IMG/VR virus record: IMGVR_UViG_2627854098_000001
Reading direction: 5' to 3' (one strand)
From: a virus
Lineage: Duplodnaviria > Heunggongvirae > Uroviricota > Caudoviricetes
Length of the DNA stretch: 44,371 nt
The position numbers were made by a program, and so were the translations under genes. The notes beneath the pieces were generated by a model. That model was given only the letters and a program-made list of their open reading frames with translations, was not told the DNA's origin and did no database searches. Below are positions 1 through 955 of this stretch, piece by piece. How positions within the stretch are numbered: position 1 is the stretch's first letter; every line of letters begins with the position of its first letter.

Positions 1-327
1 ATGAGAAATATCGTCATAGCGAAGGAGTTCTCCAGAACACCTTTCGGACGTTACACAACGGATAGCCCACACAGTGCGGAAAGATTTCGTAGAGAGTTTT
101 TGGTGCCTGCGCTGAAGGGTACTGAACAGGAGATTGTGGTTGATTTTCGCGGTATAGCACTGGGTGTTGGTTCCTCTTTCTTAGAAGAGGCGTTTGGAGG
201 TCTCATCCGTAAGGAAGGGATACCTAAAGCCAACGTTAAAGCACGTTTGATTATAAAAAGTGATGTTCCGTTCTACAAAGAACAGATTGATAAATTTATT
301 GATTTAGCACAACCAGAAAGAGTATAA
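1..327 (+). CDS. small STAS-like protein (DUF4325-like), 108 aa
   Basis: Intact ORF starting at base 1; pattern FGRY...DFRGIALGVGSSFLEEAFGGL resembles the STAS/DUF4325 fold; family assigned from memory, not searched. Confidence 0.4.
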   Translation: MRNIVIAKEFSRTPFGRYTTDSPHSAERFRREFLVPALKGTEQEIVVDFRGIALGVGSSFLEEAFGGLIRKEGIPKANVKARLIIKSDVPFYKEQIDKFIDLAQPERV

Positions 328-337
328 GAGGCGATAG

Positions 338-955
338 TTGATCAGTACGGAACCAATGTCATTAGTAGCACAAATAGGACAGTATTCGTGGTGTATCACA
401 GTAGTTAGCGTCTGCTTAGTTTTCATTGGATGGCGAGTTGCGTACAATAATTCTGTAAAACTGGCGACACGTTCTGAATCGAAATCAATTATTGATGCTA
501 TTTCAAAGTTAGTTATTGAAATTTCTGATATTTCTTCTAACTATTGGCTCAGTCAGACAACTCAACCTAAAATTAGAGCATCAAAGCATCGATTGTTAAG
601 GTTGCAAAAGGATAGAACAAAGGCTTCTGTTTCATACTTGTTAACTATCTTGGCTAAAGCTCAACAAGTTTCCAAACTGATTTGCATTTTGGAAAGCAGA
701 GGACTGTATATACCTGACGAGGTGTTCTCATCTGTACTAGAGAAAGCAACTCTGGATTGTGAGGTCGCTCACAAGCTTTCAGATGCCGATCGCCCGGTTA
801 AAGCACAAGAAGTAATTGATGCTTGTATGGGAGTTATCGAAGCGTTACATACTTCTTTTCAAAGGTACCACCCTCCCAAAAAGGATCGTACCTTTATGCA
901 AAGGTTAAAAATTTGGTTTCAAACAGTAGACGATTGGCATAATGACTTAAAATAA
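338..955 (+). CDS. hypothetical single-pass membrane protein, 205 aa
   Basis: TTG start 338 with AGAGG RBS at 327-331; one N-terminal hydrophobic helix (CITVVSVCLVFIGW); AT-rich; 3' end overlaps the int stop. Confidence 0.5.
   Translation: MISTEPMSLVAQIGQYSWCITVVSVCLVFIGWRVAYNNSVKLATRSESKSIIDAISKLVIEISDISSNYWLSQTTQPKIRASKHRLLRLQKDRTKASVSYLLTILAKAQQVSKLICILESRGLYIPDEVFSSVLEKATLDCEVAHKLSDADRPVKAQEVIDACMGVIEALHTSFQRYHPPKKDRTFMQRLKIWFQTVDDWHNDLK

Follow-up and report, generated by a model that had tools for sequence, protein, structure and literature searches.

The stretch of DNA examined here is the 44,371-nucleotide IMG/VR virus record IMGVR_UViG_2627854098_000001 (Caudoviricetes), the whole of which is referred to below as the window, and the first 13.3 kb of which is identical to the matching stretch of the chromosome of the avian pathogenic Escherichia coli (APEC) strain IMT5155. 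The window opens inside a three-gene operon, here designated K-S-T, of which the kinase-type gene K lies to the left of position 1 and the last two genes, S and T, correspond to the following open reading frames (ORFs):

1 to 327, plus strand: ORF1 (the S gene), 108 amino acids (aa), ATG start, encoding a STAS-like DUF4325 protein.
338 to 955, plus strand: ORF2 (the T gene), 205 aa, TTG start preceded by AAGAGG.

Both ORFs are considered to be real genes because they represent conserved protein families, that of ORF1 comprising 151 clusters and that of ORF2 comprising 35 clusters in a word-indexed search and, later, 169 representative clusters (50% identity, E values of up to 1e-3, many of approximately 150 to 165 aa) in an exhaustive profile search. 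The sequence AGGAG is located 8 nucleotides (nt) upstream of the S start codon, and RefSeq employs the ATG at position 356 as the start of ORF2, yielding a product of 199 aa. The two genes are separated by 10 nt, and the stop codon of ORF2 falls within the 3′ end of the integrase gene, int, which is encoded on the minus strand and ends at position 947, the resulting overlap being 9 bp. The GC content of ORF1 (42.5%) and ORF2 (38.0%) is below that of the whole window (51.6%) and of the adjoining core genes (56%).

The product of ORF1 matches Pfam family DUF4325 (PF14213) with an E value of 6.2e-14 and a score of 51.9 bits against a cut-off of 23, the domain extending from residue 25 to residue 87, and PF14213 was detected in all of the full-length S homologues listed. 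The protein consists of the STAS-like domain alone and lacks a DNA-binding domain. Residues G57, S59, F60, L61, E62, E63, F65, G66, G67, and R70 are invariant in the alignment of the S family, and within the motif GSSFLEEAFGG, residue S58, adjacent to the invariant S59, is retained in at least 90% of sequences. S58 or S59 is proposed as the candidate phospho-acceptor, with S representing the putative substrate of the kinase and a putative antitoxin.

The gene K, annotated as hypothetical, is located directly left of position 1 on the same strand as ORF1, its stop codon lying 4 nt before the S start codon. In its 303-aa product, a STAS domain at the N terminus is joined to a GHKL Ser/Thr kinase domain of the anti-sigma-factor type; the structural model of K begins with a STAS beta-strand at residue 2 and contains no helix-turn-helix (HTH). 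The catalytic motifs are intact and invariant across 109 sequences (E155 and N159 of the N box; D201 and G203 of the G1 box; R242, G243, and G245), and a PDB profile search with K returned just a weak match to the N box of RsbW (E = 0.35). The K family encompasses at least 145 clusters at 90% identity, with hosts including Escherichia, Salmonella, Klebsiella, Enterobacter, Serratia, Yersinia, Pectobacterium, Proteus, Providencia, Photobacterium, and Salinivibrio, among others. A tblastn search of 50,697 GenBank phage genomes returned no match to K, and a single match, of 30% identity, was obtained among 72,556 plasmids; the latter is located on a 54-kb nonmobilizable plasmid of Pasteurella multocida (NZ_CP112899.1, positions 15185 to 16060). 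Promoter and terminator scans identified sites no more commonly than in shuffled controls, and the one plausible −35/−10 pair, situated 33 nt upstream of K, cannot be taken to indicate function.

Linkage of the three genes was found to be obligate. Searches initiated from K recovered K-S-T in one order and orientation in 50 of 50 loci, 40 of which are IMG/VR proviruses, at K identities down to 29%. In a metagenome scan for T, a broad alignment failed, having no conserved block, and a narrower alignment was used; distant T relatives led to 14 loci, all of which had K and S directly upstream, T being lost at the contig end in one. Pooled, the complete operon is present in 63 of 64 related loci, T being cut by a contig end in the 64th. 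These loci derive from Enterobacterales, Vibrionaceae, and metagenomes, the gene order is the same whether the search proceeds from the K side or the T side, and the genes frequently overlap by 4 nt. The operon was observed adjoining int, after the tail genes of a Yersinia prophage, and beside an IS4 fragment in a Photobacterium chromosome, and because it occurs in several genomic contexts, it is considered to be self-contained and mobile. Among 5,426 complete E. coli genomes, the cassette was present in 131, always at an identity of 99% or more, and its carriers include UTI89, APEC O1, S88, and IHE3034. The products of all three genes belong to PHROG families of unknown function.

The third protein, T, possesses a single N-terminal hydrophobic segment (residues 17 to 35). 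In 36 of 36 family members examined, this membrane helix has an acidic or neutral N-terminal flank and a C-terminal flank with a charge of +2 or +3, and by the positive-inside rule, the helical bundle of T is, therefore, predicted to be cytoplasmic, which would place it in the same compartment as S and K. The T model (predicted local distance difference test score [pLDDT] of 81) contains a long helix, spanning residues 9 to 75, that leads from the membrane into a bundle of four to five helices. Directly following the membrane helix is the conserved motif GW.V.Y.N...LATRSESK..D, and TLDCE and F..HPP are conserved as well. T belongs to no Pfam family and has no PIN match in Pfam, and no Pfam family was detected among the tested clusters of the 169-cluster T set. 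A UniRef label of DUF4760 on one T homologue was not reproduced, and neither near nor distant T members match DUF4760 or any other Pfam family convincingly. T is the proposed effector of the operon.

An earlier note, which was made from the window sequence alone, had described a two-gene cassette, and its characterization of both products has held, ORF1 as a STAS/DUF4325-type protein on the strength of the Pfam match and ORF2 as a protein with one N-terminal transmembrane helix and an otherwise unrecognized soluble domain. Its suggestion that the system may continue left of coordinate 1, and its mention of a partner ATPase or kinase, were borne out by the GHKL-type K, the stop codon of which lies 4 nt before position 1, and the cassette is thus one of three genes. 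The overlap of 9 bp with int had been given correctly; the intergenic distance, given as 11 bp, measures 10 nt. Neither the kinase gene directly upstream nor the disruption of int by an insertion sequence (IS) element of the IS66 family and a frameshift (detailed below) had been recognized.

The closest known system to K-S-T is VapKSC, in which the STAS-GHKL kinase VapK phosphorylates an approximately 116-aa STAS antitoxin, VapS, on S48 (Chambers et al., EMBO J 2026, PMC13373217; PDB 9Z7O). Once VapS is phosphorylated, VapC, a PIN toxin, is set free, and protection against phage Bas42 results (PMC13373217). A related kinase, CapK (HTH-STAS-GHKL), is switched on by single-stranded DNA (ssDNA) and phosphorylates CapS, a STAS repressor with a winged HTH (wHTH), the trigger of both VapK and CapK being ssDNA derived from infection or DNA damage (PMC13373217). 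The coupling of PIN genes to DUF4325 genes had been noted in an earlier survey (PMC5499597). Using the family profile of S as a query against PDB, the top match was 9z7o_A, “Escherichia VapS” (E = 0.053); a search of PDB with the single S sequence returned chance matches only, and the family profile was needed to reach VapS. A complete vapKSC operon of Rahnella bruchi (L018, positions 3024 to 4884) was recovered with the VapS sequence, and its VapS is 78% identical to the PDB 9Z7O chain. In hhalign comparisons with the Rahnella proteins, the S profile aligned to VapS with an E value of 1.2e-4 and a probability of 55%, placing S58 opposite VapS S48, and the K profile aligned to VapK with an E value of 1.7e-5, a probability of 78.5%, and 20% identity over 162 columns of the kinase domain only, the STAS domains remaining unaligned. 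For this reason, equivalence of the invariant residue F58 of K to the ssDNA-binding residues F54 of VapK and W68 of CapK was not established. T bears no similarity to VapC (probability of 0.6%). K and S appear to represent remote but detectable homologs of VapK and VapS.

K-S-T shares with VapKSC the order of kinase, small STAS protein, and third gene, the STAS plus GHKL-kinase architecture of VapK, and an approximately 110-aa STAS protein which, as in VapS, has a short C-terminal helix, no wHTH, and a serine at the position of VapS S48. It differs in that K and S are just ~20% identical to VapK and VapS and in that the third gene encodes a membrane-anchored helical bundle rather than a VapC/PIN nuclease. 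The operon thus has the architecture and conserved switch residues of VapKS with another third component; on current evidence it would function in the manner of VapKSC, but because the defining PIN toxin is absent, it is placed outside the VapKSC family. CapK-CapS likewise pairs a STAS-containing GHKL kinase with a STAS substrate bearing a conserved serine; however, the N-terminal HTH found in CapK is missing from K, as is the wHTH of CapS from S, and K-S is followed by the lone gene T rather than by a multigene immune operon. Anti-sigma partner-switching modules (SpoIIAB-SpoIIAA, RsbW-RsbV, and SiaB-SiaC) differ in that K possesses a STAS domain of its own and the cassette travels as mobile prophage cargo and includes an obligate membrane partner; no linked sigma factor, PP2C phosphatase, or diguanylate cyclase is present, and in the loci with genes listed, neither a sigma factor nor a PP2C phosphatase was found within the cassette or conserved beside it. 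Membrane-protein variants are not mentioned in the VapKSC paper (PMC13373217), and no description of a kinase-STAS-membrane protein trio was found in the literature searched, subscription-only literature being outside its scope.

The element harboring the operon is located between ssrA, which specifies the transfer-messenger RNA (tmRNA), and glaH/csiD. Coordinates beyond the window are given in the numbering of locus L001, in which positions 12984 to 12987 correspond to window positions 984 to 987. A 188-nt copy, 90% identical, of the final ~20 nt of ssrA together with the ~165 nt downstream of it, terminator included, is present at L001 10755 to 10936. The attachment (att) site accordingly derives from the tmRNA gene, beyond the right end of the window, and its far-end, ssrA-derived copy is situated ~150 nt left of the K start codon; transfer RNA (tRNA) scans of the window and its left flank were negative. 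Because this att copy lies left of K, the three genes reside inside the att-bounded element, between the far-end att and int. The int gene is 92 to 98% identical in 412 of the 5,426 complete E. coli genomes, and matches elsewhere start at query position 29 to 32. Junctions were mapped by blastn of L001 against L004, L005, L006, L007, L008, and L011, and in the related prophages homology extends from glaH as far as the att core, is then interrupted, and begins again at window positions 984 to 987. Four other cargo types hold the slot occupied here by K-S-T. A sequence type (ST) 131 strain and strain ET300 each carry one hypothetical gene (~260 aa), an O103:H2 strain carries a ParA-family gene and two hypothetical genes, and an O2:K2:H1 strain carries two hypothetical genes. 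In prophages with the 92 to 98% identical int, these slots extend over L004 5141 to 5920, L005 3785 to 5707, L006 4762 to 5950, and L007 5119 to 5916. A version of K-S-T with 52% identity occupies the same slot in other Salmonella and E. coli genomes. Because related prophages hold unrelated genes between the same two junctions, the att-int slot is a cargo hotspot, and it resembles the defence hotspots of prophages and satellites in providing a fixed site, between the att core and the int 3′ end, for unrelated low-GC gene sets in close relatives. No description of this slot of ssrA-integrating e14/CPS-53-like prophages, or of its cargo repertoire, was found in the literature searched.

These findings also bear on the alternative of an origin outside the prophage, in an adjacent island or in neighboring chromosomal DNA, of which the earlier note had deemed an adjacent island equally plausible. 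Its GC content, below that of the rest of the prophage, would fit such an origin; against it stand the 188-nt ssrA-derived att copy left of K, the overlap of T and int, which leaves neither an att site nor a spare base between them, the other genes held between the same junctions by prophages with a 92 to 98% identical int, and the numerous IMG/VR provirus predictions that start or stop exactly at K. A neighboring island is, therefore, regarded as refuted and its probability as negligible. The note had correctly stated that no att site lies between cargo and int and had correctly viewed the genes as low-GC, horizontally acquired, integrase-proximal cargo, as reflected by the different genes that the slot holds in related prophages; the genes were not found to be conserved chromosomal genes of nonlysogens, and the STAS-like nature of ORF1 stands. 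As for its phrase “defence or accessory cargo,” the cargo status is upheld by the hotspot, and a defence role is a proposal made below, the PADLOC searches being empty.

The right-hand cargo junction and the adjacent, disrupted int gene of the window are arranged as follows:

984 to 987, no strand assigned: right-hand cargo junction, 37 to 40 nt inside the int 3′ end, where homology with related prophages resumes.
947 to 1272, minus strand: int 3′ fragment encoding the C-terminal 107 aa (Pfam Phage_integrase), annotated by RefSeq as “integrase, incomplete” and convergent with T.
1273 to 3970, minus strand: IS66-family (ISCro1-like) element of 2,698 bp with tnpA, tnpB, and a frameshifted tnpC, which splits int.
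3971 to 4826, minus strand: int 5′ part encoding the arm-binding and core-binding domains and the start of the catalytic domain, annotated by RefSeq as “frameshifted; incomplete.”

Comparison of the flanks of the IS66-family element with the intact int of UTI89 (1173 nt) revealed an overlap that represents an 8-bp target duplication (1265 to 1272 and 3971 to 3978). The int 5′ part additionally contains a frameshift near positions 4227 to 4264, evident as two overlapping ORFs in different frames, with the Pfam Phage_integrase match falling on positions 3920 to 4264. The int gene is thus inactivated twice in this strain, by the IS66 insertion and by the frameshift, and the prophage is probably locked in place here. 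The ST95-type far-end att copy (L001, at about 10925) lacks 6 nt (TCCACC) of the ssrA 3′ end; this deletion is absent from related prophages with other cargo and, together with the broken int, may impair excision. Two further IS66-family copies are located near the right end of the window (38839 to 41454 and 42038 to 44371), namely, an additional ISCro1-like copy and, extending to the end of the window, an IS66 member of a different kind. Between them are situated a recombinase fragment and the tail of a GmrSD-type restriction gene (fragments at 41546 to 41668 and 41770 to 42048), the bulk of this restriction gene falling beyond the window.

Additional genes of possible accessory function were observed elsewhere in the element and beside it. 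Its ssrA-proximal end, past the right end of the window (L003 3798 to 12284), contains a LEM-3-like GIY-YIG gene, a DinI-like pseudogene, and an IS-split GmrSD gene, and both ends of the prophage are, therefore, considered to carry defence-type cargo. Beyond the prophage end, L005 (1 to 3497) and L007 (1 to 4909) encode a second integrase followed by an “ATP-binding protein” and “response regulator receiver domain” gene pair, and this arrangement suggests tandem elements at the ssrA locus. Between xis and yfdR, a multipass membrane gene of 28% GC (5035 to 5927, minus strand) is frameshifted in the window and intact in UTI89 (287 aa); it matches no Pfam family, displays a weak PADLOC match (E = 1.4e-5) to Csx27, the type VI-B CRISPR-associated membrane protein, and may represent a second cargo gene. 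Two small AT-rich ORFs (16566 to 16901 and 18326 to 18577, both plus strand; GC content of about 32 to 34%) flank the lysis genes, lack matches in both Pfam and PADLOC, and possibly represent additional morons.

Based on the analogy with VapKSC, we propose, at about an even level of confidence, that K-S-T acts through a membrane effector as a toxin-antitoxin or abortive-infection module gated by phosphorylation. In the resting cell, S would bind T and keep it inactive. A trigger, which in the case of VapK and CapK is ssDNA, would activate K, which would in turn transfer a phosphate to the conserved serine (S58 or S59) located where STAS helix alpha-2 of S begins. Phosphorylated S would then release T, and T would damage or depolarize the inner membrane, thus stopping growth, aborting the infection, and potentially protecting against phage.

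Several points weigh against this proposal. The structural matches of T are generic helical bundles, among them the four-helix bundles of sensors, and its cytoplasmic part contains many invariant polar residues, which would suit a specific binding or catalytic site, or a sensor, equally well as a membrane-disrupting toxin. A killer triggered by ssDNA or DNA damage and carried by an SOS-inducible prophage would fire at the induction of that same prophage, for which reason the trigger or its threshold could differ. The narrow spread of the cassette in E. coli, at no less than 99% identity, says little about selection in this lineage. PADLOC-DB v2.0.0 contained no match for K (E values of up to 10) or for S or T (E values of up to 1); the Rahnella vapKSC operon, included as a control, was likewise unrecognized, returning just spurious matches with E values above 1e-3, and because VapKSC is missed too, a negative PADLOC result for K-S-T and for kinase-STAS systems is uninformative and is given little weight.

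Of the other functional explanations, that in which T acts as the membrane sensor or anchor of a partner-switching module, recruiting or regulating K and S at the inner membrane, is viewed as rather unlikely. T might, in such a case, sense envelope perturbation or DNA injection, the output being phosphorylation of other phage or host proteins by K or the sequestration by K and S of a host factor, for example, a sigma factor. It is distinctly improbable, in our estimation, that the operon represents superinfection-exclusion or lysogenic-conversion cargo, whereby T at the inner membrane would block DNA entry or alter the envelope and K and S would tune its activity without killing. The small size and inner-membrane location of T and the status of the cassette as prophage cargo are compatible with such a role, and in P22- and Sf6-like phages, lysogenic-conversion genes classically occupy the att-int slot. 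However, known exclusion proteins act alone, without a kinase-STAS pair, the strict linkage of K, S, and T and the intact kinase motifs are indicative of a gated switch, and the operon is found outside prophages too.

Slightly less credible again is a role purely in addiction, in which a tripartite toxin-antitoxin system would serve to retain the prophage or its cargo slot and would have no antiphage function. The location of the antitoxin-like gene ahead of the toxin-like gene, their close or overlapping spacing, and the occurrence of the cassette on mobile elements accord with this explanation, and the authors of the VapKSC study describe the line between defence and stress response as blurred (PMC13373217). 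The presence of a kinase input, however, implies a regulated trigger over the simple decay of an antitoxin, and addiction overlaps mechanistically with the proposed phosphorylation-gated module, from which it is inseparable by sequence.

K-S-T is well conserved outside its source strain and, as judged from its sequence, appears to be a variant, of putative function, of a recently described type of system located in a prophage hotspot. The att-int cargo hotspot is identified here in ssrA-integrating e14/CPS-53-like E. coli prophages, including those of the ST95 extraintestinal pathogenic E. coli (ExPEC)/APEC lineage (UTI89, APEC O1, S88, and IHE3034), and its other occupants represent further candidate systems. 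It is possible, and is put forward tentatively, that K-S-T represents a widespread and hitherto undescribed family of immune or toxin-antitoxin systems gated by phosphorylation, in which the ssDNA-sensing CapK/VapK-type kinase-STAS switch, as a general modular trigger, is wired to a membrane effector. If so, a new class of effectors that span the membrane once, marked by the juxtamembrane GW..Y.N..K.A.R.E motif and the TLDCE motif, would have T as its first representative. Should K-S-T act as proposed, a function would be provided for DUF4325 in this context, for three PHROG families, and for an unclassified family of membrane proteins. The signaling logic described in 2026, in which a DNA-damage- or ssDNA-activated GHKL kinase acts on a STAS protein, would thereby be extended to a membrane effector output in place of a repressor or nuclease toxin, and the view of the kinase-STAS pair as a portable sensor module of bacterial immunity would gain support.
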